Below the pieces are notes generated by a model that saw only the letters and a list, made by a program, of their open reading frames with translations, was not told the DNA's origin and did not search any database. A DNA stretch of 64,000 nt, from assembly GCA_039621445.1 (NCBI GenBank), contig CP154954.1, forward strand, positions 23,014,954 through 23,078,953. Direction: 5' to 3'. Of this stretch, positions 328-55,430 are shown piece after piece. Each line of letters begins with the position of its first letter. Position 1 is the stretch's first letter. The position numbers were made by a program, and so were the translations under genes. Origin of the DNA: Euglena gracilis (Eukaryota).

Positions 328-1314
328 TCATTCCCACTTCTCCGTGAACCACTGGTACCGCTGTCGACGATACCTCCTCTTGCACGCCTCGGAGAGTCCA
401 CGTTCATCTCCACTTCTCCTGCGGGCTCGGGACGATGCTCCTTCATCTCCTGGGGGCATGTCCTTCAGGGTCTCTTCCTGGAATCTTCGGTACTGGAGCA
501 AGCACGCCCGGACTGGCCAACGCAATGGCCCAGTCGGCTGCATATGGCCCGCCTGCTGGTCCCAGATCTCGAAGAACCGGGTTCCTTCCTCGAAGATGAT
601 GAACTTCACTGTCATCTTCTGCAGCATTGGCCACCATGTTGTTGTACGCCACTCTGGTGCAATCAGCACCATCTCCTGCACCTGGTCCGCGATGATCTTG
701 AGGATAACTTGATTCATCAACGTCCACGGTGGGTTGGCCCATATCCTTTCTCTTGACCATGTCTTCGCAAATGCATTGTCTTCCTTCGTCCAGAACTTGG
801 GGAATCTTGCATTTTCCCATGATGCAAATGCTTCTTGCACACTTCCTTGCTGAATGTTGAACTTGTCCAGGATCAGGTCGATGAATTCCCAGCGCACGGC
901 GTACTCCTCGGAGATGTACTACCTTTTGATTCTTCTTCCCCTTCCACTTGGTCTTGGCAGGGTCTCTGGCTCTTCCACCTCGTAGTACTCCTCCTCTGCA
1001 GCTGGTCCTGATTCTGGATCTCCTGGATGTGGTTGATTCTCCATCACCACATTTCTCCTCCTGAATGGCTGCAATGGCACTTCCGGTTCTTCAGCTGCAC
1101 CTTCATAGTTTGGAGCTGGACTTCTTGATTCTTCTTCTTCTTCTTGTCCATCCCACACTGTCAATGCAGATCTCCAGCCCTCTTCTGGAAGTCGGACAAT
1201 CCATCTGCTCCAGCTCCAATCTGTCACTTCCTGCACTTTCAAGTGATCTTCTTCCGGCCTCCAACTGACATTCATCCTTCTGGGCTTGGCATTCTGGTAT
1301 TCTGACTCTGGCAT
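328..1314 (-). pseudogene. N6-adenine (Dam/DIRS-type) DNA methyltransferase with acidic N-terminal extension; one in-frame TAG at 919-921
   Basis: EEYAVRW..VQEAFASWENARFPKFWT..DNAFAKTWS..IWANPPW..KIIADQ..LIAPEW..WWPML matches the DxFAS..N / AF..W / NPP(F/W) / P.W..W pattern; ORFs 919..1314 and 328..897 share a frame. Confidence 0.85.
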
Positions 1315-2487
1315 TCTGGTCTTCTGGTAGTTTGGTTACTGAACACTTCCGTTTTCTGTGTGTCTCTTTGGGGTGTCTTTTCCCTTTTTCCCTTGATATT
1401 TGAATGCACAACACTTTGCCAGCTTGATAGGATGAAGTGTTCCGGCTTGGAACCACCTACAGAGAGGCAGTCCAATAAACTAAAATTAGGAAGTTCCGCA
1501 AAGCGGAAGATTCCGCTGTTGGTCTTTTTTTGGCCCCGCCCGGCGCCACACCCCAGGGGCCGCCGCCAACACTTCCTACCGAGGCGCCCGGCCTCGCCTG
1601 CCTTCGGCTAACCTCGGAGGCGGGAGCGGGGGGCGATGCGCACCTCATCGGCACAGTGAACGACAAACAAACGTCAGGGCGGTTCGGGTATACGGAGGGC
1701 AGGGGTGTGGCCTTGGCCTCGGCCTTGGCGTTTTGTGTTTGGTGCCCGGGGGCGTTTTGTGTTTGGCGCCCCTCGTGTGTCGCCTCGCGCGCCACAGGAG
1801 CCTGGTCGGGGGCTGGCGTTGGTCCCCGGGCGGTCTACTGGCAGGCCGGCCGCAGGCTCCTGTGGGCGCCTTGGGAGGGGGGTGGAACTCCTCCGGGCTC
1901 TGGGCGGGGGCCGCTGTCCTGCTGGGTGGCTTGGCAGCCGCGCCGCGCCGACCTGCAGGCTGGGTGCAGAGCCCGGAGCGTTGAGCCTTTCGGGGGGGCT
2001 GTGCGCTCCCCGGCTGGTTGTGGGGGGGGGGGCGGTCCCTTGGGCTCCCTTGGGTCTTTCTGGTGCCTGGGGGGTCTCTTCGGCTCGCCTGCTTTGCCCC
2101 CTGCCTGGCTTCCTTCGGCTGGCTGGGGGGGGGGTGCCTTTCTCTCCCTTGCGCCTGCTCGGTTCTCTTGTGGCGCTCTGGGGGGGGTGCTCCTTGCGCC
2201 CTCTTCGGTTCTCGTTTGGCGCTCTGGGGCTCCGGTGGGTGTGGGCGCTCCTGGGGGGGGGCGATTTTTTTTTTCGGGGGGGGGGCCGGGGGCGTTTTTT
2301 TTTTCGGGGAGGTCCGGGTGGCGTTTTTTTTTTGGTCCGGGGGGTGCCTGGCTCGGTGGCCCCTTGGGGCCTCCTGGGGGGGTCTTGGCTCGGTGGTCCT
2401 CTAGGTCCTCTCGGTGGCCCTCTGGGGGGCCCTGGCTTGGTGGCCCTCTGGGGCCTCTCGTCTTGCTGGTGCCGATGGGGGGGGGGC

Positions 2488-2660
2488 TTGCTTCGGTTCC
2501 CCCTGGGAGGGGCCTGGCTGGCTTCGGTTCCCCCTGGGGGGGGGGTTGGCTTCGGTTCCCCCTGGGGGGGCCTGGCTGACTTCGGTTCCCCCTGGGGGGG
2601 CCTGGCTGGCTTCGGTTCCCCCTGGGGGGGGGGTGGCTTTGGTTCCCCCTGGGGGGGGTG
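2488..2660 (+). repeat. ~29-bp tandem minisatellite (ggcttcggttccccctggggggggcctggct), ~6 copies
   Basis: Recurrent ttcggttccccctggg units. Confidence 0.85.
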
Positions 2661-3529
2661 TGCCCGGCTGCCCTGGCTGTCTGCCTCCCCCCGCTGGCTG
2701 GGGGGAGGGTGGCTGGCTGGTGGCCCCCTTGGGCCGCTGGCTTGTCTGTGTGGCCTCCGCCCCCCCGCTCTCTCCCGGCCGTTGTCTTCCCTTGGCCGGC
2801 TGGGGGGGTCTGCTCTGCCCCTGGCTGCCGCCCGCCTATGGCTTCCGGCCTTGGGCGCCAGCCTCCTCCTGCCTCCACAGTATCAGTGTCAGTGTGAAGG
2901 ACAGGAGCAGAGACATCCGCTGCCATGCGTCGGCTCGCCTCCGACGGTGTAGTCTCCACGTACCCAGCCTCCGCCAGCGTCTTGGTCCACGGCGCAGCAG
3001 GCACTCTGGCGAATCGGCAGGCAAGGAACGGCAGCAGCAGCAGCAGCCCCACAAATACAACCCCCGCTACCCAGTACGGTTTGACGCCAGGCTTTTCCAA
3101 CCACCCCCGGGGCGGTGGGCTGGCATGGGTAGCCGTGGGTAGGGGAAAATGGGAGGCCTCCGGGTTGGGGCCGGAAAGGGCCGGGACTCACAAGGCCTGC
3201 GTTGGGGGGATTGAGGACGCAGACACCGGCGGTGGTGCCCTCTCGCCGCCTTGAGGCTGGGGACAGGTCCTGGAGGTGCAACGGCAAGGAGCCATGGGTG
3301 GCGAAGGCTCCATCGGGACAGGGGATGAACGGGGCGCACTGGGTATGGGGGTGCGCTGGCAGGAAATGGTGTGAGAGGAACGGGGACGGCGTGGCACAGG
3401 CCGGCGGCAATGGGGGGGGGTGCCGGCCCGCACACACCGGGAAGGCCGCAGGCGGAGGGGGCACCGCGTCCCCGCCCACAGGCGGGAAATGGTTCGGAAT
3501 GGGCACATACGGAAAATGGGTGAACATCG

Positions 3530-3645
3530 CAGAGGCAGCCACTGCCGCCTGGGGGGCAGCCACAGCAGCCTGGTTGGCAGCCACCACCGTCGCCTGGGGG
3601 GCGGCCACAGCAGCCTGGGAGGCAGCCACAGCCGCCTGGGGGCCC
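3530..3645 (+). repeat. 21-bp tandem repeat (gcagccacagcagcctggggg), ~5 copies
   Basis: Direct reading. Confidence 0.75.
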
Positions 3646-4199
3646 CAGAGGGCCACCGAGCCAGGACCCCCCCCCCCGGAGGCCCAGAGGCCACCAACCA
3701 AGGCCGCCCCCCCCAGGCGGACCGGAGAGCACGACCAAAGACCGCCCACACACCAAGGCAGAAGACCCAAGGGGGACCCCCCGGGCAAAAAAAAAAACGC
3801 CCCCCCGGACCCCCCCGGACCAAAAAAAAAACGCCCCCGGACCCCCCGGGGCAGCGTGCGGCAGCAAATGAGCGAACGCAGACACGGGCTGCGCGCACTC
3901 AGCTCCTGTCGATGGACACACCAAGGTTGATACCGCAGCAGAGGGGATCTGGGGATCAGCCTCCTGCGACAGCTGGGGAAACGCAGAGACGGAGGGACGG
4001 TCGGACGGGTGGTGCACGAAGTGCAGGGGGACGGGCTGGTGCGATGCAGCGGCGGCGACGGTCCGCGGTGGATCCTGACCTAGCGCTGGCGGTGGATCGC
4101 GTGTCGGGACGTGCTGTGCTGCAGGCACCGCTGTGCCCACTGGGGGGTCCGCTGACTCCCCTTCCTGGCTGCTTGCGTCCTCGTCCTTCTTGATGTCCT

Positions 4200-5760
4200 C
4201 GTCGGGCCAGACCCACTCCTCGGGTGGGTCTTCCCACTCGGCGTTGTTGATGACCTCCTGCTCCTGCTTCTTCACCTCCGCGACGATGACCACCACCTCA
4301 GCCGGGTTGCGGTGGAGGTAGTCCAGCAGGTGCACCTTGAGCTTCTTGGACTTGGCGTACTCGATCATCTGGTGAGAGTAGCGATGGAAGAAATTTTTCA
4401 ACGGCTCCCACGTGAGAGTCGGGTGGCCCTCCCACTTCACCTCGAACTCCCAGTCGCCGTCGTCTCGTCTGCGGTGCCGCCGGATCTCCTCCACCGTCCA
4501 CTCCTCGATGTCCACGTCTTCTTGCGGTCTGGCCTGCCGGTAGACGAACATCTTGGGCGGGCCCCACAGCCGCGTGTCATCGCGGTAGGCCTTCAGCTGG
4601 CAGCGGCTGGCCTCTTGGCGGCGGCCCTCCTCCAGCTCCAGCTCGTACGAGTGCTCGCCACGGCGCGCGGTGACCCGGGCTGGGCCAAGCCAATAGCTCT
4701 CGAGCTTCTGGCCCGCCCGCCTCCGAGGCCGGAGGTACCAGACCAGGTCTCCCTTGGCGAACTCCTCGAGGTCCTTCCTGCTCCTGTTCTTCTGGTCCGC
4801 TTGCCGCTTGTGGAGGTCGTTGGGGACGTCGGCGACCTTCTGGTCCACGGCCTTCTGTCTCTCGAAGAACGACACGGCATCCTCCACCATGACCGGGGCC
4901 TTGTACGGTACGCCACCAGTCCACCGATGCCGTCCATACAGCACCTCGTATGGACTCAGGCCGTGCTGCGCCTTGGAGTCGTTCAGCTTCTGCACTGCCC
5001 TGGGCAGGGACTCCACCCAGGTGATCTGGGCCTCGGCCTTCTCGCTCCGGATCCGCTTCTGCAACTGCGCACCGAGGGATTCCGCCCGCCCGTTCGCCGC
5101 GTGGTGGTACGCCTGGGCGTAGGCGTGGCGGATCCCGTGCAGGCCGCACATGCTGCGCCACCACGCGCCAGCAAAATGCGGCCCGCGATCACTCGTGATC
5201 ACGCTGGGCAGCCCGTGCGGCGACCACCACTCCCGGTACATCGCCTTGGCCACGGTAGCGGCGGTGAGGCCGCGCGTGTGGTGGGCCGTGGCCACGACCC
5301 ACCCACTGTGGCGATCGACGCAGGCGGCGAACACGTTGTACAGCTGCCCCTCGAAGTCCACCTATGGCATCACGAAGAGGTCGATGGCCACCGACGCCAT
5401 GAAGTACGGCGGGACGGGCGTTGGGCAGACCTCCAGCCACAGCGGCTGGTGCGGGTGCTCGGTGGCCTGGCACACCGGGCACGTCCGCTGCAGCCCGCCG
5501 GCCACCTTCGCCGCCTCCATCCGGTCCGCAAAGACGTAGGTGCGCTCGGCCTCCTCCACCAGCCCGTCCCCGCCAATGTGGCCGGAGACCGAGTGCTGCT
5601 GCCTCAGCACCTCCGCCAGCGGCCCGCTCGGCACACACCACCTCCCCGCCGAGACGAGCCGCCCATCCACCAGCTGTAACCCGCTGGGCCAGCCTGGGCC
5701 GTTGTGGGCCTGGTCCCAGACGGGCTTCCAGCGAGGGCACACCGCATATGCCTTGCTCCA
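4200..5760 (-). pseudogene. pol: Element A integrase plus C-terminal chromodomain; TAG at 5362
   Basis: H-x4-H..CPVC Zn motif, VAIDLF, ITSDRGPHF, NGRAE, WLGP; chromodomain EEWTVEEIRRHR..FEVKWEG..TWEPLKNF (~4390-4505). Confidence 0.9.
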
Positions 5761-6315
5761 GTCCATGTCGAAGACGTTGATGGACAGGTCAGGCTGCGGG
5801 GGCACGGGATCAGCGGTTGACGGCACACCTGCTGCGGGCGCTGCAGACGGGACTAACGCGGCCGGTGACGGCACACCGGCTGCGGACGCTGGGACGGGCA
5901 TGGCCGGTGATGACACACCGGCTGTGGGCACTGCGGGCGGTGCGATGGACTGCGGTGCGGTGGACTGTGGTGCTGGTGATGGGGCTGGCGATGGCGCGTT
6001 GGACGATGGTGCTGGCACGGACGCTGGTGATGCGGTGCACGACGCAGACGGCAGGACTGCCGCAGACGATGCCGACGGTGGGACTGCTGCGGCCGCAGGA
6101 GACCAGGCTGACGGGTGCATCTCGCGTGGGTGCTCGGACCGCGTACCGTGCGGGGCGTCTGCTGGGGCGTCTCGGGCGTTGCGCTGCGTGTCGAGGCGGC
6201 TGCGCATGGTGACGGCGATGTGGGACGCTGACGGGACCGTGGCGAACGACTGGAGCGGGAACAGCTGGATGAAGGCCAGCTCTCTCCCCTCCTTCAGGGT
6301 TGACCTCTCCACCTG

Positions 6316-8676
6316 TTACGCCTTGGTCTCCTCGTCCTCGGGATGCACCGCCTTCGGGGTGGACTTCTCGCGCAGCTTGTCCTCCAGGATGTGGGCCTTC
6401 ATCTCCTTCGTGTCGGCCTCGGTGCCGTGCCACGAGGTGTCGCGCCAGCCTTGTGAGGCCGGGTAGGCCCAGCGGGACATGGCATCGCCCACCACGTTGG
6501 TCTCGCCGAGGACGTGCACCACGGTGATGCGGAACTCGTTGAGCTTCACATGCCATCTGGCCCGCCTCCCCTGCGGGCCCACTCCGGCGACGTACTCCTT
6601 GTACCACGACTCCAGGCTGCGGTGGTCGGTCAGGACGAGGATCTCGTTGTCCAGCAGGAAGCCCGCCCACTTGTCGAGGGCGGCCACCACGGCATACGTC
6701 TCCTTGTCCCGGACATCCCACCGAAGGCGCTGCCCCTCGGTGAGCTTCTGGGACATGAAAGCCACCGGGACGGAGGCCCCCGGCCGCAGGTCCTCCACCC
6801 GCGGCACGCCGTCGATGTTCAGGAACTGCTCCAGCACCGCTCCGATGGCGTAGTCCGACGCATCGGTGCGCAGGACGAACGGCTTGGCTGGATCGATGTG
6901 GTACAGCTCCAGGTCGGCGACGAGGGCCTTCTTCGGCTTGTCGAACGCTTCCTTCTCCTGCTACGTCCACACCACTGGGTGCTTGGATCCCGCCTTGGTC
7001 AGCTCCCTCGGCAACTTCAGCTTCTCCTGCAACGGCGCCGCCAGCTCTGCGTACAGTCTCACATAGCCTGCATAGTAATTGCAGACGCCGAGAAACGCGC
7101 GGAGACTGCTGACCGTCGGCGGCAGTTGCCAGTGCTGCACCGCCGACAGTTTGCCTGGGGCAGGCGCCCTCCTGCCGTGCCCCAGGACATGCCCCACGAA
7201 CTCGACCTGCCTCATGAAGAGCTTGACCTTACGGCTGTCGCTGACCCATCTGTCCCTCTCCAAGGCCAGCAACGTCTCACGGACGTCTCGGGCGTGCTTC
7301 TGGTAGAACTCCTCGTCCGTCTCCTCCGCTCCCTGCCGCGTACTGACGATGATGTCGTCGAAGTACGGGCGGGAGTGCGCCTTCACCGCCGCGCAGGTGG
7401 CGTCGATGTCCCGCTGTAGGAGGGCGGGCCCGACGTTGATCCCCTGCGGGACCACACGCCACTGCCACAGCCCACCCGGCAGCTGGACGTTCGTCACCGG
7501 TCGGCTCTCCTCCGCCAAGGCCACCTGGTGGAACGCGTCCAGCAGGTCGATGGTGCTGAAGAGGGTACACGTCGCCTGCTCCGCCACGATCTCCTCCGTC
7601 AAGGGCAAGGGGTAGCTGTCCGCCATGATCTGCAGGTTCGTCACCGCGTAGTCACACACCATCCTCCACTTCCCGTTCTTCTTCCGAATCGGGAAGGCCG
7701 CCGCCCGCCACTGGCCTCTGCCCGGCTCCACCTTCCGGTCGCGGCGGCACTCCTCCTCCATCTCCCGCAGCGCCTCCAGCCGTTTGCCCTTCAAGTGGAT
7801 CAGATTCCCCACCACCGGCTGGGCGTTTGGCTTGAGGCGCAGCACCGCCATCCCGTGCTGGCCTCGGGGCGGCGGATCGGGGTGGACGCGGTCGCAGAAG
7901 ACGCGGCGCGGCCCTCGAACTCCTTGAGCATCTCGGCGCGCAGCTGGACGGCCAGCGGAATGCTGCTCCTCCGCCTCGGCCGTGAGCACCCCACGGACTT
8001 CCTTCGCCTCCTTGGCTGCGTCTATCAGCACCTTGGCCACCATTGCCTCTTCCTCGGCGTCCAGGGCCTCGTACTCCTCGTCTCCGTCGGGGCCATTGAC
8101 CCCGACGGTGAGCCTCATCTTCCTCACCTCGGCCTCCATCTCCTCCACCACTTCGGACGGCGTGCGGGGCAACGGCGACGGGCTGCGGGCTCGGACGGTC
8201 GCGTGGGTGCGTGTGCTTAGCGCTGCGATCTCGCTTGCTTCGGTGCCAGCGATGACCCATCGGGGGTCGTCGTGGAGCTGGAGCGCATCCCGCCAGGGTT
8301 GCATATCCAGCCTGTGCTCCTTCAGCCAGGGGTAACCCAGAATCAGGTCACACCCTATATCACCGTCACGGACGGTGATCTGGCTGTGCCCCCTCTTCAC
8401 TCCTCCACTCCTCTCTCCTTCGCTCCTCGCGTTGAACGCCAGGAGGACGTCCGCCTCATTGCTGCCGCCCGCCAGCAGGTCGCCGTTCACGGTGCGCTGC
8501 AGCAGCGGTCGCTCGCTGCGACGGAAACATCCGTTCGGGAACAAGTCTTGACGGATCAGCGACGTCTGCGCCCCCGTGTCGATGAGGGCCTTCGCCTTCT
8601 CCTCCCGGCCGTCGATCTCGATGACCACGTCCAGCATCAGCTGATAGCTGCCTCCCCGCCTCTCCATGCGGCCCAC
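6316..8676 (-). pseudogene. pol: Element A aspartic protease, reverse transcriptase and RNase H; TAG at 6961, TAA at 6316
   Basis: ALIDTGA; WRMVCDY, YPLP, IDLLDAFHQV, VPQG, YFDD, FVGH; TDASDYAIGAVL, FMSQKL, TDHRSL, GDAMSR. Confidence 0.93.
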
Positions 8677-8730
8677 CTGGAAGGACCGGCTGGGGCGGTA
8701 TTGCCACGGACAGACGGTGACCTTGTGGAC

Positions 8731-9924
8731 TTACCGCGGGGGGTGGGGCTCGTCGGCGGCGGTGGTGACGGGCTCGGCGGGTGGATCGTTGTGTGGCTCG
8801 GCGGGGGCGCACGATGATTGGCGGGTGCACGATGGCGGTCGTTGGCGCGGGGCTTGGGACAGCGCCGCTGCTTGCGGGGGCAGCGCCGTCCGGCTTGGCG
8901 GTGCGGTTGTGGACGCGGGTGCGGGTGCCGGCGACGGCGGTATCGCGCTGGGCGGCACGGCTGCTTGGCGGGTTGGTGGGGTGCGCTCGCACAGGTATCG
9001 GACTACACCTTTGGGAATGTGATACGCCTGCTCTCGGGTGCCGCGCTGCTGGAATGCCCCACCCACCTGCCATCGATGATGTCGTCGTCCATCTTGCTCC
9101 TCCACGATGTTCTCGCACTGGCCGTCGCACACGATGTCCTGCATGGGGGCCATGGAGTCCGCGCTCCAGAAGCGTGTGGGCTTGCGATAACCCCACGCCT
9201 CGAACATGCAGTAGTCCACATCGACGTACTGCATGTCGTCCACGACCTTGCGGTGGCGGAGTTTCCCATAGCGGGGATTCTCCAGCCACCACAGGGACGG
9301 CCGCAGGTAGGCGATGATCTCCTTCGTCTTGAGGACCAGGAAGTCGGCCTTCCGCAGCCGCCGCCTCCTGGTCGTCATCGCGCTGGAGTACTCGGTGCAC
9401 GGCGGTGAGGCGGCGACCAACTCGAAGTCGCCGGGCCAGTACTCCTCCCAGTACCGCCAGCGCCGCACGTCCACTGTCTGGTCCGCCTTCCACCGCGGGT
9501 CGGCGTCCACCGAGACGACGGAGTAGCCGAGCTTCTCCAGCGCCCGCTTCACCGACCACGTTCCGGAGAGCAGGTACAGTGCACACCTCTTTGGTGTCGA
9601 GGTTGTCGGTGACGCTGCGGCCGACTTCAGTGCCGCCCGGGAGGACGGTGCGCTCTGCGGGGGGAACGGGGCGCTGGTTGCTGCGGGTGCGGAGCGTGGT
9701 GCCGCTGACAGCGCTGCTGATGGTGGGGGCAGCGTCGTCCGGCTTGGTGCTTTCTGGCGCGGTGCCCGCTCCTGCTGCTGCCGGGCTGGGGGCGTCGCGG
9801 TGACACGATGCTGCGTAGACGATGGCACGGACGCTGCTGGCTTGGCGGGGGGCGAGGACTGCGCAGACGAGACGGGTCGCGCAGCAGACGGTTGCTCGGA
9901 ACGACGGGACTTCTTCTGTAACAC
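8731..9924 (-). pseudogene. Element A C5-cytosine DNA methyltransferase (domain ~8985-9590), in frame with protease through one TAA
   Basis: Degenerate motif I LYLLSGTWS, motif IV ASPPC, motif VI WLENP, VDYCMF..GYRKPTRFW; 54 nt in-frame gap to ORF 6961..8676. Confidence 0.88.
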
Positions 9925-10129
9925 GGACCAGTAGTTCTTTGTCGAAATCTGATGCGCCCCGCCTTGGCCGTGTGCTTCAGGGCACGGTCTCTCCCCTCCT
10001 TGGGAGATTTGGGGCTTGCTGGGTCTGGGGGGGGGTGCGGGGCTCTTGGGTGATTGCCCGCACGCTCACGCTGGCGTTGGGATTTGACGGCCGGCCCAGA
10101 CCCCCATCCCTGGGGCCTGGGCGGCCCGG

Positions 10130-17270: not shown

Positions 17271-17419
17271 GCCCGGGGGCGGTACGGTAGAATGGTTGGG
17301 TTGTTGGTTGTCAGTTGGTAAGGGTAACCGCTTGAGTATTGTCTGGCAAAAATACTTCTGCGGAAAGAAAGAATGATAAGAATCAATTGAAAAATGAAAA
17401 GAAAACAACATGGGTTTCC

Positions 17420-39722: not shown

Positions 39723-39724
39723 TT

Positions 39725-40920: not shown

Positions 40921-40929
40921 CATGTTTTT

Positions 40930-41270
40930 GGAAAGCAAATGTAAACACATACACGAAAGTTGGGTGAACCACTCCGGTTCCGGAATGATTGGTATGAGAA
41001 TAAGTCCACGGGCTTCATCCCGGAGTATTTTCTCAACCACACATTCAATAAGTTTTGAGGGGGTGCATCCATAACACCGTATCACCCCAAAACTTATCAA
41101 ATTTATTGGGGTGTTGTGACCAATGACGTGGCAAAAGGGCATGCACATTGGATTAGAAGGCATCAATTTCCAATGCCAAATCAAAGGTAACAGCCAATGT
41201 CGCGATTTCGGAAAACCATCGTTATAAGATGCGATATTGACCAAATTGAAAGCACTCCATACGCGTTCGG
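40930..41270 (-). pseudogene. D2 N6-MTase-like domain between PR and RT (frameshifted)
   Basis: FDKFWGDTVLWMHP(P)..KLIECVVEKILRDEARGLILIPIIPEPEWF. Confidence 0.72.
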
Positions 41271-46480: not shown

Positions 46481-46484
46481 TCTC

Positions 46485-46845
46485 AGGCGCCTTCCGCGCC
46501 CTTGGTCGTCTAGAGGGGGGAGGTGGGGCTGCCCCCCCCCCCCCCCGCACCGCTCCCCGCCTCCAATAACAATATCCCTTCTGGGGGATAACCGACCCAG
46601 GGCCACGCGTGCATGTAATGCCAAGCGCAGCGTAAACAAAACAGTGCTAAGGCGCCCTCGGCGCCCTTGGTCGTCCTGTGGGGGGGGGCTGCCCCCCGCA
46701 CCCCCCCCCCCGCCCTCCAATAATAAAATCCCCTCCGGGGGACAACTAACCCAGGGCCATGCGCGCATGTAATGCCACGCGCACCAACAAAACAGTCCTA
46801 AGGCGCATTCGGCGCCTTGGTCGTCTAGCGGGGGGGGGGGGGTGA
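46485..46845 (+). repeat. ~150-165-bp tandem repeat, ~2.3 copies, at the point where D2 gag is cut
   Basis: aggcgc..cttggtcgtc at ~46485, 46650, 46801. Confidence 0.8.
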
Positions 46846-48920
46846 AACCCCTTTCTTGGTCCAAGTTTTTTTGCGCATCCTTCGGCCTCGGCTGCTTTTT
46901 GAGGCGGCCGCCGGGCTTCGAAGCCGAAATATTGAATCTTTTTCTTTTTGTCCTTTTTCCATTGATTATTGAAATCCATTTTTTCTTCAAATTCTTGTTA
47001 TTTGCACGCACAATCAATTGATTTTTTTTGTAGTGTTGCACAAGTGCATTGGGTGGGATAAGAACCCTGTGTGTGAGATTTGGTTTGAAATTGCTGGGTT
47101 CGAGTGGGGACTTTCTTAGGTTAATTAGGGGAAAATGGCAAATCCCACTGTGGAAAATTGGTCGTCCGGTCTTGAGAAGTTCAAAAAATCGGCCCAGCAA
47201 GGTCGAAAATTGGGTTCAGGCTTTCAAGCCGAACCATAATCATTTTTTCCCTAGGTTAAATTCGACTGAAAACCAAAAAATGGAATTTCAGTGATTTTCG
47301 GCCCCACTTAGGCAAATTTTGCCAATTTTTGGGTTAGGACCCCTTTACACTCCCCCGCTTGGAAAAATAGCGGGGAGACTTTAAAAAACGTAAGTAAAAA
47401 AGATGGGGTCCGCAGAAAAAGAAGCAATTTGGTTTGCCAAAAAAGTCGTATGTGTGCGGTTGGTAATAGCAACGAGAGGAGGGGGGGCAGCCCAAAAGGC
47501 CACCCCGCGTAAGTGACGGGGGGGGGGGGCAGCCCGACGGGCCACACAGCACCCCGGGGGAAGATGGTGCAACGGTGCAACAGGTGGCGCCGAAAGTCAG
47601 TTTGGGGCAAACTGCGTGGGCAACGGTGCGGCGCAACTCAGCTGCGTACGCCGTCGCCGCAACCGCCGCCTCCCACTCCAGGTGGTTGCCACGGTACCGC
47701 GTATGTGTGAGTCGTGTGTTCACAATCACAATATGTGCGCTATTTTTTTTGTCCCACGCACCACACGACACTCATGCTTAGAACGAAACTTTGCGGGCAC
47801 CCAAGGCGGGTCCGGTTGCAACTTCGAAAGTTGCACGCCGAGCCACAATGGTGCCTGGGCATGGTTTCGCGTTTCCAACCCTTGCGAACCATTTTGTGAC
47901 CAACCGCAATTCAAGAAATCTGGTTGTTAGGCTTCAGGGTTGTTTTGATGGTTAGCCTAGCCTTCCGTTAGGGATTCTTTCTCTTAAGGAGCAAACTCCT
48001 TTTTTTTTGGTTGGCTCCTTTTTTGTTGTTGGGGTTCTGCCTATTTCCCACAAACGTAACTTGATTGTGACTTACGGCCGTTTTTTTGGGGGGGGTCCCA
48101 TCAACCCGTGCCCTCCCGGGCCGTCTCACAAATCTTGGCCCAAAATTTCCACCCCTTAGAGAAAAACTGTGCTTGGAAAATCTGTCCACCTTTTGCTTTT
48201 CAAAAAGCAACTCCAAATCTGTGAAATTCTCATCTCCTTGCGTACCAAAAATTGCTCCTCCGAACCCAAAATTCCTTTGGGGTACCTACGGGTGCCTCAC
48301 CGACAAAATCGTCGGCCATGTCCCATGCCTGGGCAAATTTCCTTCCCAGAATTCTCTGAAAATTCTGCACACCGTCCTTTACGGGGGTGGTTGAGTTTCA
48401 CCTCCTCTCCGTAAATAACACCTTTAATTCCCTGCAATTATGTCGGTAAAACACATCGACTTTTCGTTGGAGCGCCCCACTCATTCTCCTCCAAATGAGT
48501 GGGGCTCATTCCCGTTTTGTTCATCCTAACGTTATTCTTTTCTTCTACACAACACAACCCGTGAAAATGAACAGATTCCACCTCCCACACTTGCCCAAAA
48601 AAACGTCAGATTTTTTGCCTTGGGTAAAATCGGCAGACTCAAAATTTTCATTGGTCCACCGTTCAACCCATTTTTTCTTCTCTTTCCACAAACGGGCGGA
48701 AGAAAATTGAAATAATCCACGTTTTTCCACTTAGGAAAAATGAGGGGGTGCAAAATGCGTTTCACCCTCCCCTCTTCCTTTTCCACCTGAAAATTGTACA
48801 CATCCACCACCGTTTCCCAAAATCTGGGGTTTATCCAAATCCTAAATTCGCTTTTGTCATCGGTCATTCGTGACGGGGTACCCTGGGGGACCAACACCAA
48901 ACCCTCCCCCTTTGGAGTAT

Positions 48921-49392: not shown

Positions 49393-49639
49393 GCAAACGG
49401 TCGTGTGGTGCCCGCCTATAGGCAAACACAGGCACTACAAGCCGTTTCCGGCCAAAGCCGTACGCACGGACACGTCCTCTGACGGTTCGCAGTATACACT
49501 GCTTCAAACCTCAGAGTGCCGGTCTCTGCTTACTTTATATAATATCCCCTCTTTTTGCACTTGTTTCTGCATTTTACCCCGCAATCTACACTTAGTTTTT
49601 GTGTTAGTGCCTCAAAAACGCAGAGCACAACGCCCATTG

Positions 49640-52600
49640 ATTATGCAGCATTGATTGGTTCACTTCGTGGACTTGAACCTGCAGCATCATTGTCTAGCTC
49701 TAATGAGCATTCACAACCCCATAGGGGTACACATGCATTGAATCATTTCAAAGGTAATCCTCCTTCCCAGCGTGTGTCACACCTATCGGTGTCTGTGTCG
49801 AGTTCTCCTCCCCCCGCTCAATGGGCAGCCCCACACCTATCGGTGTCATGCTCTATAGAGGAACCCAATGCCCAACAGGCACAACCTCTTTTGTTGGAAA
49901 GCCGATCGGCTAACGCCCATTCCTCCCGGCAAGATCTCGCACTGGTGCCGATAGGCACATTCGACTCTGAGGCGGATACGCCACGGCCATTTTTTGTATA
50001 GGGTGGGTTAGAAACACCATGTTTCTTTCAGCTCCCCCCCCTAAGCTTCCCCCTACAAGTGCGATTGGACAACTGCCCGCACCACCCGATACGGGTTCTT
50101 TTCCGGCATTGCCATGGCACTCGGAGATGCGTTTAACAGTTCCGGCTTATACAAGTCCCACAGAGTCTATGAGCAGTGATGCGGAAGAGTTGGAAAATAT
50201 TTCCCCTCAACCCATTACCGTGATTCAGCGCATAGTCGCAAATATTCCAGTGGACCACCCGCTAACGCGGCAAATTTCCCATGTCCACACTTGTGTAGCG
50301 GATTGTGCTATGACACTTAACAAGGTTTTGGATTTTGATGAAAACAACCAAAAGGTTGTAGAACACAAGCTGAATTACCTTTGGAGTTATGTGCGTGATG
50401 TTGGTCAATATTGCCAAACAATCTTTCAATCCACCAATGTGGACCTAGCAAATTTGCGTCAAGGTTTGGACACACATTTGCAGGCACATTTGCCACAACA
50501 CTTCCAAAAAGTGAGTGAAACCATGTGTGAAACACAATCCCGCAATGATGCGATTTTCTCGAACATGCAATATAGTTTGAAAGCTTTATCACACCATTTT
50601 TTCCACAATTGCAGCAAAAGTTGCATGAACCCCCTATCAAAAATCCAGATTTGGGACAATTTATCACATAGGAGCAATTCTCCACACTTGCATCTGCATT
50701 TCAGGAGGCGCAACAGCGCATTTTCCAGTTAAGCGGTGATTCCGCGAATTTAGCCCACTTTTCTGCCCAAACCAATGAACGTTTTTTCCCCCCGCACGTA
50801 TGTGCAACAATTGGAGAAAACACTTTCTCGATTGGAGCAGAAATTTTGCCATTGTGTTGAGATTCCTGCTGAAATTGCCAGTTTTCACACCCGAATCGCG
50901 AATATCGCGAGTAGGATTGAGAATTTGCAACAACCGTGGCAGAATGACACAATGGAATTCCGAACCGAAATGGCGGATTTGCAGAGCCGCAATGCGGCAA
51001 CCCGTGCACCAACACCAGATATTAGCGGACTCAAGGCCACCATGTCCGATTTGCACAAACAGTTGCAACAGGATGTTGGTAACATTGAAGCCTCATTGGC
51101 TAATTGGCTAAGTTGCACACCCGTTATGCGGAAGTAGCTGGTGGGATCCCGGATGTTACCGGCATTCACACCTCGATAGCGGATTTGAACAAACGTATGC
51201 AAGAAATGAGCTCAAAAATGCTTCAGGTGCAATCACCACCCCAAGGCTCATTGCCTTTACCAACACCTACCCCCACACTCCCAAACACCCACTTGGACCA
51301 GATTCGCGCTGAAATGCGCACGGAAAAACACCAAATCATGCAAGGATTTTGTGACAGTCTCATGAACACCGAGAAAAAGGCAAAGCAGGATGTCACAAAA
51401 CTGCAAAATGACCTTATCGCGCTATCCGCGCAAGTTTCAGTGTTGCAGAAACAGCCGACGGCTGAAAAAGTCAAAGATCCGCATTCGGACCAACACACCA
51501 AGCCATCTCCACAATTGGAGAACATTTCCAGTGCGATGCGCACTTTGGTGACAAGAGTACAGGAATTGGACACTGGGTTTGGTGCAATTTCGTACAATTT
51601 TCAGTTGATTTCCCACAAAATGCCGCTTTTGGATGAGCTATCCTCATACCGTAGGTGGATTAAGCGTTTGCAGGAGGATGTGGGTCAGATAACCGACAAT
51701 TGGCAGGTTGTTCACCATTTGGAGCAAAGTGTGCATGAATTTGCAACAGCTTTGGACTAAATTCACGCACAATTGCGTTCCATCCACCAAAACCCGCAAT
51801 CAGGTATGGTTGGCGCACTTGCCACATCTTCCAGCTCCAAAAGCGCTATTCGCGCACCAATTCCCGAGTCCACAGACACATTGCCACCAAATCGCGTTTC
51901 CGCTCATGCGGTGGTTTCCCCATTAGCATTACCAGTCCCAAATGGACGAATTCTCGGAAGATGAGTCGGTTTTTCAAGCGAAAACCAGACTCACCCCCCT
52001 CTTAAATCAGGAGATTCGCGAATCCGAACTAATTCGTGGTATGATCCGCACCCCCACACCGGGTATTGGTCATACCTCCCAAATTCGCTTAGTAGCACAA
52101 TGGTGCAACTATGTGATACCTCACCCCCACATGCGCAACCGCATCACCATTCGCGCAATCACGATTCCCCGAATTTGCATGGTACCTATAGTACACTAAG
52201 TGGTATGTTCCATGCGCATTCGCAAAATAACCCGAACAATACCCTTGGTGCAACCACCGGTGTACCAGCACATGGTGCAATTTCGCACCCGGGCCCACAC
52301 CCCTGGAATACCACCGAAGGGCCACGGGTTTCTGAGAAAGATTTCAAAGGCACCATCACGATAGCGAACAAGGTGAAGCCCCAATGGGACAGTGACCCCA
52401 CCACATGGAAACAATTTTTCCGCGACTGGGAATATTTTTGGGATTTGAAGGGACCCACCAAAGATGACAACCCGGAGGTAATCAAGATGGAATTCATCGA
52501 TTTCCTCCCAAGGGATGAAAAAGAACGCGCCAAACAATTAGTCATTGGCAGGCGCATTTCTTTTGAAGAATTGGTTGAGCAATATGCTTCCTCATGCTCC

Positions 52601-53760
52601 AGTTTGGTTTCCAGAATCAGTCTGGAAAACAAATGGCGGCAATTCACCCCCCCCCGGACTGCAAATGGATGTCGATAGACTTGTGGTCTTAGCAGCCGAG
52701 GTTGATGAGTTAGGGGAAAAGCAAATCAAAGAACAATTTGATTCAGTATTACTGCGCTACATCCCCAAACTCGTCAAGGAAATTCAACGCGAGGAACTCG
52801 CGGGACACATTTTGACTCTCGATGAGAGATTGAAGTACATTTCCAAACAAATGGACAGATCCAATCGGCATATCACCACCACCCTACCGCGGGTGTACCT
52901 ACCAGTTCCGTCCATGCAGTCCAAAGGACTACCTCCCCAAAATCACCAAAATCACCATCGAGTGAGTCCAAAACGCGCTATCCGCGCTCAAACCCCAAAT
53001 CCCCGACACGGGAATCCAAATCGCGCTATTCGCGCTCTTCTGATCACGTTTGGACAAAGTGTGCTTTTTGTGTAATCAACCAGGACATATTTCTCGCGAA
53101 TGTCCTAATCCCCTAGCGCGAAAGCGCAGTAAAAGCCCCTGAGGATCCCTCTCTTCTTGGAGTTCGCGTTCCTCACGATCTGCGCATTTGCAAGGGTCGG
53201 GATACCGATCGGGTGATGCTATCCCGTTCACCCCACCGCAATAGCGGACGTGGTTTCACACCGCGTGGTCGGTCCCCCCGCCGCCCTACCCGCAATCGGG
53301 ATACAAATCGCGATTCTTCGCGATCTCGGTCTCGAAGTGGATCATCCTCTTCGCGATCCGATCGCAGTCGAGCGGATACCCGCTCCCCACGTCGTTATGA
53401 TGCCAAAAGGCAATCGCAGCCGCTAACGCGTTGTTCCCTTTGTGGGTCTAAAGACCATCATTCATCCAAGTGCCCCCATCCCGTTCTCCCCGCCACAGCC
53501 ATGGTCATCGCGATTCCAATCGCGGTTCTGCCAATGGGCAGAAGGTTGGTTTCAAGATATCCTCTATCGAGGAAAAAGACCTGGTTTCGGGCAGGGAGGG
53601 GGATGATAGCACCGAGGATGAGTTGGTGGAAGACAGGAATGCGATTCGCGGGATACTCGCAATTTACTCTAGGAAGTCCACCATAGGCCAAAAGGCCGAC
53701 GCTGATATGGATGGGGAGCCTGAGGTCTGAGGGCACGGACCTCTGGGCTGATGAACAGAT
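49640..53760 (+). pseudogene. gag: E gag, fragmented; two CCHC knuckles separated by an RS-rich tract
   Basis: WKQFFRDWEYFW; CFLCNQPGHISREC (~53060); CSLCGSKDHHSSKC (~53430). Confidence 0.78.
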
Positions 53761-53989
53761 TTAGGTAGGAACTGGTCACCCCGGCCCTCCCTGCCCATCG
53801 GTCTTTTTGGTCGGTACCCGGAAAATTTTCGGGTCCCCCACTCCGCGTCAAATTTTTGCTTGGAAGGTTGAGCAAAGTAAGCAAAACGTCATGGAACAGC
53901 TGGCGCGACAACAAATTTACACCCGACCCTTCGCTTTGCGTACCCCCCATGGTACTTTTGGTCCAGGCGAAAATCACAACGCAAAATGT

Positions 53990-54320
53990 TTGTGCACAAG
54001 CCAAAATTTTAGTCGACACAGGGTGTCGAATCCCCCTTCTTTTCGGCAAAGGACTTATACTCACCCCCCTCTTGGTTCATGCAAAGAATCCCATCAAAAT
54101 TATAACTGCAGACAACAGCCACGTGTGCGGTGGTGAAATGGGATGCATTTTGGACATAGTCCTCCCCATTATCCCCAAGCACCACACACACACCCCACAA
54201 TTCTAAACTTTTCCTGGTACTTGGGTATTCGAGGCGAACATCGCCGGTTCTGACTTCATACTCGGTTTTACATTCCTACAGCAACACCGATTGGTGGTGG
54301 ATTGTCCTTCGCACGGTTTG
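53990..54320 (+). pseudogene. pol: E aspartic protease
   Basis: ILVDTGC..IITADNS..SDFILGFTFL. Confidence 0.8.
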
Positions 54321-55001
54321 CGCACTACCCCCCGCACACACACCACACCCCCAAACGTGTTCCCCGTGACGTCACCCAGGACGTCCCCCCGCATTTCCAC
54401 AACGTTTTCCACAATCGAAAACACCGTTTCCAACCCTAGGGGTAAAGAGAAAGCTGCCCCCCTACCCATCGCACTTTTACCGCCCGTCTCCCATGCGGTA
54501 GGGAAAGCCAGGAATTTTCCCCCCCTACACCTGGTAGTGGTACCTATACACTTGGTACGGATTTAATACATAACCAAAAGGTACACAGCGGTGGTACCAT
54601 GGGTGATACACCCATCAGTACACCTGGTAGTTATTTAAGGCTCACAAATACACTTGGCAGCTTTTCGCAATTCGCGAAAGTGAATCAAGCACCACAGTGC
54701 AAAGGCATAGCCTCCGTTTTCGGATTTGCGTATAGCGCTCCCCATGCGCCTATGGCGCTCTCCAACGCCCCCGCGCATATCGCGCTTGCCGCACATAGTG
54801 CGAATCCCGCGCATATCGCGCATTCCGCACTATCGCGCATCACTGATGACCAGGTATATGCCCAACCGACCCATACCCCACCTGGATCGAGTCCTATGGA
54901 CATGTGTGTGGATGATTCACAACTCCTTTGTTCTGTGTTACAGCGTGTTCCCCCCCTTTCAGGATGTTGAGCAGATCGCCGAGTACACCAAGGATACCTG
55001 A

Positions 55002-55430
55002 AATACGTTTCAATTTGGTGAATACCAAATATTGAAACATTGGTTTTCAAAAGTCGCCGATATGGCGGATTTTTTTGATTTGACCTTGGAAATTGATGCA
55101 TTGTCTTACAACGCGCATTCGCGTTTACCGCGACATTGGTCGCAAATTCTAATGCCTTTGATAAGATTTGGGGAGACACTATCCTACGGATGCATCCGCC
55201 CCTAAAACTTATCCCGCTTGTTGTAGGTAAGATTTTCAAGGATCAAGCGCGAGGGGCATTACTTGTTCCTGTGAATCCCGAAGCGGAATGGTTTCAAAAT
55301 TCGACTTATGTCACATTTTATTGGTAAGGCCTACCAAACGATGTACCTCTATTCGAGGATTTCCGTGGAGTGGTACTACCACTTTTTCAAGAAATCATTT
55401 TCCGTGTTTGTTTCTTTGATGCTTTCAATG
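55002..55430 (+). pseudogene. E N6-MTase-like domain between PR and RT (one frameshift, one stop)
   Basis: GEYQI..EIDALSYNAHSRLPRHWS/NSNAFDKIWGDTILRMHPPLKLIPLVVGKIFKDQARGALLVP..EWF..PLFE..FRVCFF aligns end to end with the ORF at 328-918. Confidence 0.78.

Follow-up and report, generated by a model that had tools for sequence, protein, structure and literature searches.

Do the methyltransferase domains found among retrotransposon copies at a Euglena gracilis locus reflect separate captures by separate families, or a module held by one lineage, and what might such a module do? The window analysed here, 64,000 nucleotides in all (GenBank assembly GCA_039621445.1, contig CP154954.1, positions 23,014,954 to 23,078,953), had been described in an earlier note as holding three chromodomain-bearing Gypsy families that repeatedly and independently acquired methyltransferases, at three different positions. 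The window is heavily rearranged and every copy in it is broken: element A by four in-frame stops and an altered motif I, element B by a TAG and two frame changes, and elements D2 and E by many stops. We lean towards reading it as a graveyard of retrotransposon copies from one chromodomain-bearing Ty3/Gypsy lineage, whose Gag-Pol includes a cassette for a nucleic-acid methyltransferase; in the anatomy of the elements, meaning their domains and the order of these, we have high confidence, and here the earlier identifications held up well.

A compact C5-cytosine methyltransferase between gag and protease

Element A (3067-11760, reverse strand) is a dead, GC-rich chromodomain Gypsy copy, supported by open reading frames and Pfam matches (RVT_1 1e-20, RNase H 6e-24, rve 5e-10, Chromo 7e-5). 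A single reading frame spans 10065-3067 and is interrupted by in-frame stops at 8731-8733 (TAA), 6961-6963 (TAG), 6316-6318 (TAA) and 5362-5364 (TAG), and a blastn search with word size 7 found no flanking repeats that could be its LTRs. A compact C5-cytosine methyltransferase core, recognised by Pfam and motif alignment, shares its frame with pol (9058-9612, reverse strand); it retains PPC and ENP, while its motif I reads GTWS against GTGS in the family.

Element B, likewise on the reverse strand, is flanked by a direct repeat whose copies at 34311-35141 and 21839-22672, 96% identical, are its candidate 5' and 3' LTRs, respectively; a purine run adjoins the repeat at 21839-22672. The gag-like region (30328-33470) consists of a coiled-coil ORF (31134-33470) and an ORF with a CCHC knuckle (30328-31212); it matched no Pfam gag family and is taken as gag-like from where it lies and from the zinc knuckle. 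It stops at an in-frame TAG (30328-30330), and the methyltransferase ORF follows directly. The C5 domain of B (29440-30066), identified by Pfam, alignment, profile and AF2/Foldseek comparison, has motifs I (FAGTGS), IV (SPPC) and VI (ENP) and the KPTR motif, with its final helix in another frame, past a frameshift within the C-run near 29478-29483. An open 1384-aa pol frame (25078-29232) then supplies the C-terminal part of the protease, reverse transcriptase (RT), RNase H, integrase and a chromodomain at 25141-25257 (Pfam: RVT_1 6e-17, RNase H 2e-23, rve 1e-9, H2C2 6e-5, Chromo 2.4e-4). Copies of the B family are very numerous in runs of one organism, where 2753 and 2615 contigs belong to it. 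Some of these copies differ by one base in length at 29481, and length differences occur in some copies at both sites where the window copy changes frame; five of the six variants listed for the methyltransferase region are non-synonymous, mostly private to the window copy.

A and B thus share a compact methyltransferase of about 200 aa, placed after the zinc-knuckle end of gag and before the protease, the position that the earlier note had given. PF00145 is the best Pfam match of both domains, at 13.7 bits in A and 18.3 bits in B, below its gathering score of 22. A profile of the family matched DNMT1 at 3e-5 across motifs IV-VI, and an AF2 model (pLDDT 93.1) retrieved DNMT3B/3A/3C, DNMT1 and M.HaeIII in Foldseek at 1e-8 to 6e-7. 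The domain has all catalytic motifs: across alignments of 30 and 66 sequences PPC, ENP and KPTR show little or no variation, the catalytic Cys of PPC being invariant in the former and nearly invariant in the latter. Homologues numbered 72 of 772 candidates at E<=1e-3 (best 2e-68), of which 25 matched PF00145 and four matched PF05869 too.

Independent contigs repeat the layout, in the order methyltransferase, protease, RT and RNase H and then integrase and chromodomain in L013, methyltransferase, protease and RT in L004, and methyltransferase and protease in L008, and among relatives the C5 domain is included in open polyproteins of 845-1488 aa. Between A and B the domain is 43% identical over 186 aa, compared with 37.7% for protease, RT and RNase H together and 39.4% for integrase and chromodomain, so that it is as conserved as RT and integrase. 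In one pair of environmental relatives (L007 and L011) a dN/dS of 0.036 at a dS of 1.1 points to strong purifying selection on the domain.

An adenine-type domain between protease and RT

The remaining elements form a sister branch, in which a domain with a Dam/PCIF1-like adenine-N6 methyltransferase fold lies between protease and RT. Element E (49543-57318, forward strand), a decayed copy defined by Pfam matches and ORFs (RVT_1 4e-24, RNase H 2e-21, H2C2 0.0035), comprises a gag-like region, protease (53769-54206), Dam-like remnant, RT (55874-56488), RNase H and an integrase zinc finger; the last three are also contained in a 1972-bp unit present in nearly four tandem copies, 95-97% identical, at 55629-63244 (forward strand). 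Element D2 (39725-47215, reverse strand), about 73% identical to E in nucleotides, has in order a gag-like region, protease, a CxxC..CxC linker, a Dam-like remnant, RT and RNase H (Pfam 2e-20), and is truncated inside the integrase zinc finger. It is met head-on by D1 (38804-39643, forward strand), an E-type fragment whose integrase core and chromodomain are 78% and 70% identical to those of P0091, a chromodomain-bearing relative that is itself 91% identical to E in RT and 89% in RNase H. The integrase chromodomain attributed earlier to A, B and D1/D2 is thus found in A (23.1 bits), B (21.4 bits) and D1 (17.9 bits, E-value 0.003), all under the gathering score of 25.1, and not in D2, which ends before the integrase core.

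The Dam-like placement in D2 and E is borne out by homology to ORF 328-918 and to intact relatives, the two copies themselves having no Pfam match. In E the remnant occupies one frame with in-frame stops (55022-55450, forward strand) and is 42-48% identical to P0073, P0074 and P0077 at about 1e-17; its piece 55097-55324 matched ORF 328-918 at 1e-6 and intact relatives at 1e-15 to 1e-17. In D2 (40861-41289, reverse strand) BLASTP and alignments linked the remnant to the E piece (2e-12), P0074/P0075 (2e-9) and ORF 328-918 (1e-4), and extra residues relative to E disrupt the catalytic motif region. PF05869 is the sole non-RT family matched by intact relatives of E, at 19-27 bits, below its gathering score of 28.1, and 12 of 40 relatives examined have protease, Dam-like domain, RT, RNase H, integrase and chromodomain together in a single protein.

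ORF 328-918 (196 aa, reverse strand), an orphan with an intact NPPW motif, is a stray copy of the same domain and exceeds the PF05869 gathering score (42.6 bits, 6.6e-11). An in-frame stop divides it from an acidic ORF at 919-1335, and apart from it 1-1500 shows nothing that resembles a retroelement, with no protease, RT or C5 methyltransferase signal. The Dam-family identity and NPPW reported before are therefore confirmed; of the three positions claimed earlier two stand, those between gag and protease and between protease and RT, the one before a PPT being tentative, as is any assignment of this ORF to an element. Its AF2 model (pLDDT 87.8) suggests a fold closest to the RNA cap methyltransferase PCIF1 (Z 10.8) and then to KsgA/Erm/DIMT1 (Z 9-10); Z scores within 1 of each other count as ties, and the Rossmann fold is generic.

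The motif itself varies. Among 30 relatives it is NPP in 15, HPP in six, CPP in three and another non-NPP form in six. E has HPPL, as does its relative P0092, and the closest relatives of E have HPP with an aliphatic fourth residue, whereas several NPP relatives have an aromatic one. Non-NPP motifs are present even in long open polyproteins of 1662-1769 aa. Since long intact relatives in the E lineage have HPP as well, we doubt that it carries out canonical adenine methylation. With NPP replaced by HPP or CPP, and the aromatic fourth residue missing, the D2/E domain has probably lost canonical catalysis and been kept for another role.

A probable single lineage and a possible source of its C5 domain

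Repeated independent capture, as the earlier note had it, is not what the trees suggest. These were quick, unrooted searches on a biased sample, rows being database matches to window queries; in the methyltransferase tree a 99% branch sets 80 rows, from 65 AT-rich loci plus 15 proteins, apart from the rest. Both window copies and each of the 11 GC-rich loci are opposite them, so that all retroelement-type C5 methyltransferases lie on one side. In the RT-RNase H tree all five C5 rows and all 21 Dam rows fall within one clade of 44 rows (100%), with 80 ordinary Gypsy rows outside. Because A and B share one position and one 8-row methyltransferase subclade, and because of these two branches, one lineage with a movable cassette appears to fit better than three families capturing enzymes separately.

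Small stand-alone C5 methyltransferases on AT-rich phage-like or capsid-bearing contigs have the same motifs as the window domain and are, in the long matches, 31-45% identical to the B domain across most of that domain; unlike the window domains they are free-standing genes, and none of 68 such loci had protease, RT, RNase H, integrase, chromodomain or Dam alongside. One of these contigs carries a phage primase and a tail-like protein, and another the N-terminal domain of a double-jelly-roll capsid protein. The Atlas neighbours, which come from phages and archaea, are PF00145 members 210-220 aa in length. We suggest that the domain may have been acquired once, from or together with such stand-alone enzymes, and may then have shifted among polyprotein slots.

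Comparison with known elements

Methyltransferase-bearing Gypsy elements are already in print, and those of the window are a further variant. DAM-LTRs and dual-methyltransferase EpiLTRs were described in May 2026 (Fernandez-Moreno et al., bioRxiv 10.64898/2026.05.21.726589). The former, Ty3/Gypsy elements, often chromovirus-like, with a Dam-family domain, RT and integrase, accommodate D2, E and their relatives, and render outdated the earlier view that Dam-like enzymes are foreign to integrase-bearing Gypsy. EpiLTRs are resembled by relatives of A and B with both Dam and C5 domains (P0010, P0017, P0020, L006), whereas no window element has both; A and B, with C5 domain and chromodomain and without Dam, would therefore be missed by a DAM-first screen. 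In the parts of the preprint drawn on here, the Cymbomonas DNMT is placed 3'-terminally within pol, the Euglena layout is given only as 'structurally distinct', and the DNMTs are reported to be sister to DNMT4, while the nearest relatives here are stand-alone enzymes of about 200-240 aa on AT-rich viral-type contigs. Our elements are set apart from the preprint's Euglena elements by description only and may be identical to them.

The portions of de Mendoza et al., 2018 (PMC5890265) used here describe KnitGypsy-Dnmt3 of Klebsormidium nitens, which likewise has a C5 DNMT in a Gypsy LTR polyprotein under purifying selection; its domain, situated within Pol, is related to Dnmt3, whereas here the domain is compact, virus-like and placed between gag and protease in elements with a chromodomain. 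SymbioLINE-Dnmt and SymbioDIRS-Dnmt3 of Symbiodinium are likewise high-copy retrotransposons with C5 methyltransferases, but belong to LINE and tyrosine-recombinase (DIRS) elements rather than to elements with a DDE integrase and chromodomain (PMC5890265). The adenine-type domains of ORF 328-918, D2 and E are homologous to a DIRS-type RT-RNase H-methyltransferase protein, P0081 (7e-7 to 2e-9). In DIRS, as covered in the sections of Iyer et al., 2016 (PMC4738411) cited here, on the DIRS1 domain and the PCIF1 clade, the domain follows RNase H in elements with a tyrosine recombinase; in the window it precedes RT in integrase-bearing elements, and no tyrosine recombinase match was found among 39 window ORFs scanned. 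What appears to be new here is a putative virus-like compact C5 methyltransferase at the gag-protease junction, without a Dam domain in the same element.

What the domains may do

That a packaged enzyme methylates the element's own cDNA, as already proposed for KnitGypsy-Dnmt3 and other DNMT-retrotransposons (de Mendoza et al., 2018, PMC5890265), is for the present lineage a tentative idea. It is weakened for D2 and E because HPP replaces the catalytic NPP, and CpG observed/expected values (0.47-0.64 in B, 0.88-1.05 in A, 0.90-1.03 in D2/E) gave no consistent sign of self-methylation in these elements.

Somewhat less probable as a general account is that the domains are catalytically inert and retained for binding, either of element RNA or cDNA or at RNA polymerase II by mimicry of PCIF1, an idea put forward for the DIRS1 domain by Iyer, Zhang and Aravind, who judged the DIRS1-type domain inactive (PMC4738411). 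Such a role is likely for the D2/E domain: half of the relatives have non-NPP motifs, long open polyproteins included, the closest relatives of E have the aliphatic fourth residue, PCIF1 is the best structural match, and E. coli expression of such Dam domains is reported in the preprint to give no 6mA gain. Against this, NPP is kept in ORF 328-918 and the other half of the relatives, several with the aromatic residue, and the preprint describes raised 6mA on the DAM-LTR copies of three species (bioRxiv 10.64898/2026.05.21.726589). For the C5 domain, with every catalytic motif and its Cys retained, an inert role is unlikely.

We think it improbable that the enzymes act on RNA rather than DNA and so affect RNA stability, packaging or sensing, the adenine-type enzyme on cap-adjacent or internal adenosines of element genomic RNA, as PCIF1 does, and the C5 enzyme on RNA or an RNA:DNA hybrid. 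RNA adenine methyltransferases are indeed the best matches of the adenine-type model, PF12237 (PCIF1_WW) gave sub-threshold matches in P0081 and P0010, and a hybrid substrate is raised in the preprint to explain the negative assay (bioRxiv 10.64898/2026.05.21.726589); yet Z scores within 1 count as ties, the fold is a generic one, Pfam assigns the adenine-type domain to Dam, PF05869, and the first matches of the C5 model are DNA methyltransferases. Another reading takes the methyltransferase pieces for genes of their own or for nested insertions, inside elements by chance or misassembly. It is very improbable in spite of the rearranged window and of the preprint's warning that nested insertions and artefacts of assembly are a concern in Euglena (bioRxiv 10.64898/2026.05.21.726589), being largely refuted by the frame shared with pol in A, the same order in independent metagenome contigs and single-open-frame proteins, and a domain GC content that matches the element (0.65 in A, 0.51 in B).

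For self-methylation by the C5 enzyme, the following course can be envisaged. The enzyme would be produced within Gag-Pol, in B downstream of the in-frame TAG, and would be carried in the particle, and it might methylate the DNA reverse-transcribed from its own element, or else a hybrid intermediate, at about the time of integration; new copies would thereby bear the host's 5mC mark.

A compact C5 methyltransferase domain in elements A and B

The earlier note had placed a C5-cytosine methyltransferase (MT) between the gag-like region and the protease (PR) of A and B, two broken chromodomain Gypsy copies, and database, motif and fold comparisons all support that identification. PF00145, with a gathering score of 22 bits, is the top Pfam match for both domains, sub-threshold in each (A, 13.7 bits; B, 18.3 bits), and relatives score above it (29.9 bits for the database protein P0010 and 22.5 bits for the metagenome locus L005). 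When the B ORF was searched against a database, 72 of the 772 candidates reached E≤1e-3, with a lowest E of 2e-68; PF00145 is precomputed in 25 of these 72 homologues, and PF05869 as well in 4. SPPC and ENP are present in both A and B, and motif I of B reads FAGTGS. In a 30-row alignment every sequence has the catalytic Cys of Pro-Cys and the Lys and Thr of a Lys-Pro-Thr-Arg stretch; Glu-Asn-Pro and the Pro and Arg of that stretch are nearly invariant, and a Cys...Cys...His cluster is conserved as well. A 66-row alignment agrees with this pattern. The family profile matched DNMT1 (3e-5, motifs IV–VI) and, weakly, DNMT2, M.HhaI and M.HaeIII across motifs I–VI. An AlphaFold (AF2) model of the B domain has a mean pLDDT of 93.1 and a pTM of 0.88, and the best Foldseek matches to it are DNMT3B (E 9.6e-9, TMq ~0.6), DNMT3A, DNMT3C, DNMT1 and M.HaeIII, with E from 1e-8 to 6e-7 and query TM of ~0.6. 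From the homologue, motif, profile and fold results we conclude that the domain in A and B is most probably a C5 methyltransferase of compact form, ~200 residues long, whose predicted target-recognition part is very small. Its Atlas neighbours, taken from the B domain, are phage and archaeal PF00145 proteins of 210–220 aa (score 0.90).

Element A occupies a single 7-kb reading frame on the reverse strand (10065→3067). No frameshift breaks it, and we read its four in-frame internal stops, of which two are TAA and two TAG, as nonsense mutations. The methyltransferase-like stretch is followed by protease, reverse transcriptase (RT), RNase H (RH), integrase (INT) core and chromodomain; Pfam recovers RVT_1 at 1e-20, RNase H at 6e-24, the integrase core at 5e-10 and the chromodomain at 7e-5, the last at 23.1 bits, a little short of the 25.1-bit gathering score. 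A search of the flanks for terminal repeats found none. In the 30-row alignment, motif I of A has Trp where the C5 family has the second Gly of the SAM-binding loop, which fits a dead copy. A low-complexity tail of ~70% G+C follows the chromodomain at 1550–4100, and each of its strands contains long open frames that overlap.

The gag-like ORFs of B, also on the reverse strand, contain a coiled-coil region and a CCHC knuckle, and a Pfam scan of them gave zero gag-family matches. The gag-like ORF ends at an in-frame TAG (30328–30330, reverse strand) in a G-rich context, and the methyltransferase ORF continues in the same frame. Shuffled sequences fold as well as the RNA downstream of this TAG (z +0.63), so that a structured read-through signal is unsupported, and an in-frame TGA occurs in the relative L003, in a context unlike that of B; the TAG may simply be a mutation. 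A frame shift within a C-run at ~29478–29483 puts the last methyltransferase helix in another frame, and a second lies inside the protease, beyond which pol is an open 1384-aa frame with RT, RNase H, integrase and a chromodomain (21.4 bits against the gathering score of 25.1). Direct repeats of 833 bp, 96% alike, flank the element at 21839–22672 and 34311–35141, and a purine run adjoins the 3' one. Past the end of pol and before the candidate 3' LTR there is a further ORF (23707–24462, reverse strand) whose CCHC zinc knuckle matches PF00098 at 21.7 bits; B may have it as an additional ORF, or it may be a gag fragment nested there.

In two DNA runs from one organism the B stretch is covered by 2753 and 2615 contigs at ≥92% identity, so the B family is highly repeated in that organism. 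The two places where the window copy of B changes frame, 29481 and 29127, both vary among contigs: at 29481 there is a one-base length difference in one contig from each of two runs (their RNA label being a guess), and at 29127 a two-base difference in contigs of both DNA runs and of one run guessed to be RNA. In a comparison of synonymous and non-synonymous changes, most of the contig variants listed (40 of 154) are private to the window copy. CpG depletion, taken as a footprint of self-methylation, gives results for A and B that disagree.

The methyltransferase as a part of the elements

A and B are 43% identical in the methyltransferase (186 aa), 37.7% in protease–RT–RNase H and 39.4% in integrase–chromodomain. 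A metagenome scan with the C5 domain returned 80 loci, 12 of them with a G+C content ≥0.45; in 6 of these 12, queries taken from the window located retroelement domains next to the methyltransferase. The closest in layout, L013, reads MT-PR-RT-RH and then INT-chromodomain, with 68% identity to B in RT and 77% in RNase H and a chromodomain of 36.5 bits (Pfam gathering score 25.1); the same queries gave MT-PR-RT in L004 and MT-PR in L008. Three loci keep their domains in single open frames, with the parts confirmed by Pfam: MT-RT-RH-INT in L009 (1373 aa), RT-RH-MT-INT in L005 (1488 aa) and Dam-PR-MT-RT in L006 (845 aa), whose contig ends before the integrase. Proteins from the B-ORF search add MT-PR (P0003), PR-MT (P0023), MT-Dam (P0010), MT-Dam-PR (P0017 and P0070) and Dam-MT (P0020); P0010, P0017 and P0020 hold both methyltransferases as fragments. 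For one close metagenome pair the dN/dS of the methyltransferase is 0.036 at a dS of 1.1; of the other three pairs, one gives 0.17 at saturated dS and two are too diverged for an estimate.

The A–B identity, the recurrent architectures, the open frames and the dN/dS argue that the C5 domain is an integral part of these elements, under selection, and that it has sat in several slots. In the window and its relatives a methyltransferase is seen at the gag-PR, PR-RT and RH-INT junctions, alone or together with a second one, which suggests that a single chromovirus lineage swaps such enzymes in and out as a cassette.

Dam-like domains in D1, D2, E and ORF 328–918

D2 and E are decayed Gypsy copies in which a Dam-like fold had been noticed between protease and RT, and D1 is an integrase–chromodomain fragment of the same type. 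A Pfam scan of the D2 and E ORFs as first delimited gave zero matches, and the domain was recovered by other routes. The piece of E at 55097–55324 matches ORF 328–918, an orphan domain near the window start, at 1e-6 and D2 at 2e-12, and a profile of the D2 and E pieces found nine proteins at E≤1e-3 among 1.8 billion representatives. Two of these nine, P0074 and P0075, have the order protease, CxxC..CxC linker, Dam-like domain (motif Asn-Pro-Pro or Asn-Pro-His) and RT N-terminus, the last matching E at ~1e-48 to 4e-50. When the RNase H ORF of E was used as a query for longer proteins it gave 179 matches, and among the best 40 of these, 12 are single proteins that run from protease through the Dam-like domain, RT, RNase H and integrase to a chromodomain; the cross-matches, the domain order and these polyproteins uphold the placement between protease and RT. 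The Ty3/Gypsy order of protease, RT, RNase H and a DDE integrase is seen directly in A and B and, for D2/E, in these 12 relatives. PF05869 (gathering score 28.1 bits) is the sole non-RT family match in the D2/E relatives, sub-threshold at 19–27 bits, and the Dam-like domain of L006 exceeds it at 32.2 bits.

D1 is 78% identical to the database protein P0091 in the integrase and 70% in the chromodomain (17.9 bits in D1, against the gathering score of 25.1), and P0091 is about 90% identical to E. With the full-length relatives, these identities indicate that D1, D2 and E are decayed members of one Dam-bearing chromovirus family, of the kind described as DAM-LTR; D2 and E are truncated with respect to terminal repeats. 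PF00385 is precomputed in many of the D2/E relatives and, unlike DIRS elements, these have rve in the same protein, not a tyrosine recombinase; PF00589, the tyrosine recombinase family, had zero matches in the 39 window ORFs scanned. A conserved Cys-x-x-Cys ... Cys-x-Cys between protease and Dam-like domain, seen at 41290–41766 (reverse strand) and in P0073–P0075, may be a small zinc-binding module. Beside these elements, a Tf2-type integrase SH3 domain at 17440–17958 (reverse strand; PF24626, 29.7 bits) marks a second, inverted D1-type integrase fragment, and the RT, RNase H and start of the integrase zinc finger of E are repeated at 55629–63244 (forward strand) in nearly four tandem 1972-bp copies, 95–97% alike, each unit joining the next where the zinc finger gives way to the RT N-terminus.

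ORF 328–918 had been proposed to encode an adenine-N6-type methyltransferase with an NPPW motif (Asn-Pro-Pro-Trp), ahead of a putative polypurine tract, and it does match the Dam family PF05869 at 42.6 bits, above the gathering score. Its model (pLDDT 87.8) has a Rossmann methyltransferase fold whose best structural match is human and zebrafish PCIF1, an adenosine methyltransferase specific for the RNA cap (Foldseek 1.6e-5; VIA Z 10.8, rmsd 2.7 over 136 residues), next to which KsgA, Erm and DIMT1, also RNA adenine methyltransferases, at Z 9–10, are tied within one Z unit. The best pairwise matches are P0101 (44%, 77 aa) and L006 (32%, 140 aa). An acidic ORF lies in frame above it, with zero family matches; tblastn of six related polyproteins against 1–1500 gave nothing beyond the Dam-like domain itself, and a search for longer relatives found none.

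Among 30 relatives aligned to this NPPW, 15 have Asn-Pro-Pro, 6 His-Pro-Pro, 3 Cys-Pro-Pro and 6 other forms. The motif in E is His-Pro-Pro-Leu, as in its close relative P0092, and His is also found in the long open polyproteins P0093, P0095 and P0098, so that it is a trait of a branch and not private decay. In D2 the motif region is disrupted by extra residues, so that E and D2 both depart from the catalytic pattern (D/N/S)PP(Y/F/W), to which ORF 328–918 conforms.

One origin or several

The earlier observation was largely right and its domains genuine, and the part left unsupported was its proposal of repeated independent capture. Once rows with fewer than 130 aligned residues had been excluded, the methyltransferase tree had 143 rows: 76 from the 80 loci, 65 from 81 proteins, and the 2 window copies. 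A branch with 99% SH-aLRT sets apart 65 AT-rich loci and 15 proteins, 80 rows in all; on its other side are all 11 G+C-rich loci in the tree and both window copies, and A and B share one 8-row subclade. In a 124-row RT–RNase H tree, a 44-row clade (100%) contains all 5 C5-bearing and all 21 Dam-bearing rows, and 80 ordinary Gypsy rows fall outside it. Within this clade the Dam-bearing rows lie in a 39-row subclade (99%), to which none of the C5-bearing rows belongs. Both are unrooted trees from quick searches, with biased sampling; read together, with A and B in one subclade and the C5- and Dam-bearing RT rows in one clade, they speak for one chromovirus lineage that carried methyltransferases and later shuffled them, and not for three independent captures.

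Among the AT-rich loci, window-derived queries found retroelement domains in 0 of 68. One of their contigs carries a phage-type primase and a tail-like protein, and another a double-jelly-roll capsid N-terminal domain (PF16903, 2.8e-9), a capsid type found in polinton-like viruses, virophages and giant viruses. PHROGs and Pfam matched only three of 20 ORFs on five AT-rich contigs. The capsid domain lies at L017:15528–16946, in a clade that also holds L012, L014, L015, L018, L024 and L029, AT-rich loci with a stand-alone C5 relative.

Setting of the elements in the window

The window is repeat-rich, with a G+C content of 46–70%; an Rfam scan found zero families, and there is no recognisable host gene in the 64 kb. 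ARAGORN made one tRNA-Pro call, at 2585–2664 inside low-complexity DNA, which is probably spurious. Self-comparison revealed nested, duplicated and inverted segments, with duplicated blocks of 92–97% identity in scrambled order and orientation: 11739–13931 against 20784–18308, 13927–17345 with 35142–38418, 17344–18026 against 39728–39058, 18032–18307 against 34312–34037, and 21626–21837 with 38845–39056. One of these scrambled duplications is a 2.2-kb inverted repeat around 13.9–18.3 kb. The pattern suggests repeat–repeat recombination or inversion, or else an assembly problem. A proline-rich open frame of 922 aa without a Pfam match lies within a duplicated segment (13198–15966, reverse strand), with a partial copy at 35034–36113 and a similar proline-rich ORF at 63181–63999, both on the reverse strand; it may encode a protein of an unclassified repeat.

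Relation to known elements and significance

The general idea of methyltransferase-bearing retrotransposons is already published, and what is new here is a variant with testable contrasts. The available portion of de Mendoza et al. (2018; PMC5890265) describes DNMTs in Symbiodinium LINE and DIRS elements and Dnmt3 in a Klebsormidium Gypsy element, and proposes cDNA self-methylation. Fernandez-Moreno et al. (bioRxiv 10.64898/2026.05.21.726589), in the text available, report Dam domains, said to derive from prokaryotic Dam, in several LTR lineages including chromovirus-like ones, as well as the EpiLTRs of Cymbomonas and Euglena, elements in which Dam and DNMT occur with a chromodomain; they saw no 6mA gain in E. 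coli and more 6mA on such elements in vivo. By these descriptions D2 and E are further members of the DAM-LTR kind. Dam and C5 DNMT occur together in no window element, unlike in EpiLTRs as described there; both are found in L006, P0010, P0017 and P0020. A and B differ from known elements, as far as descriptions go, in their compact virus-like C5 domain, its gag–protease slot and the lack of Dam, and yet they may equal the Euglena EpiLTR elements of the preprint, with which they were compared by text description. The literature search gave no other account of a chromovirus with a compact C5 methyltransferase in its gag–protease slot, although the figures and supplements of the preprint may hold one.

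A bolder reading, in which these copies form a distinct chromovirus lineage, joins three claims. The compact C5 enzyme would have its source in small dsDNA viruses (phage-like or polinton/virophage-like) that infect microbes, and not in host Dnmt genes; it would put 5mC on the element's own cDNA before integration, which is the existing hypothesis of cDNA self-methylation; and the adenine-type domain would be a PCIF1-like RNA or hybrid methyltransferase, its HPP branch having turned into a non-catalytic binder. In the consulted part of Iyer, Zhang and Aravind (PMC4738411), the DIRS1 domain is placed in the PCIF1 clade and judged probably inactive. We think it unlikely that an unnamed chromovirus lineage with a movable methyltransferase slot, a viral C5 origin, marking of own cDNA and a PCIF1-like adenine domain will all prove correct jointly.

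The C5 enzyme, being minimal, virus-like and of ~200 residues, is an attractive small enzyme for assay, and the change of Asn to His in an otherwise conserved adenine-type domain with a PCIF1-like fold offers a concrete test of ‘writer’ versus ‘binder’, a question that the negative assays in the accessible preprint text (bioRxiv 10.64898/2026.05.21.726589) leave open. C5-only elements such as A and B would escape the DAM-first screen of 2026, and low PF00145 scores could conceal elements of this type from strict Pfam screens. Retrotransposons with their own DNA-modifying enzymes bear on the relation between mobile DNA and host epigenetic silencing.
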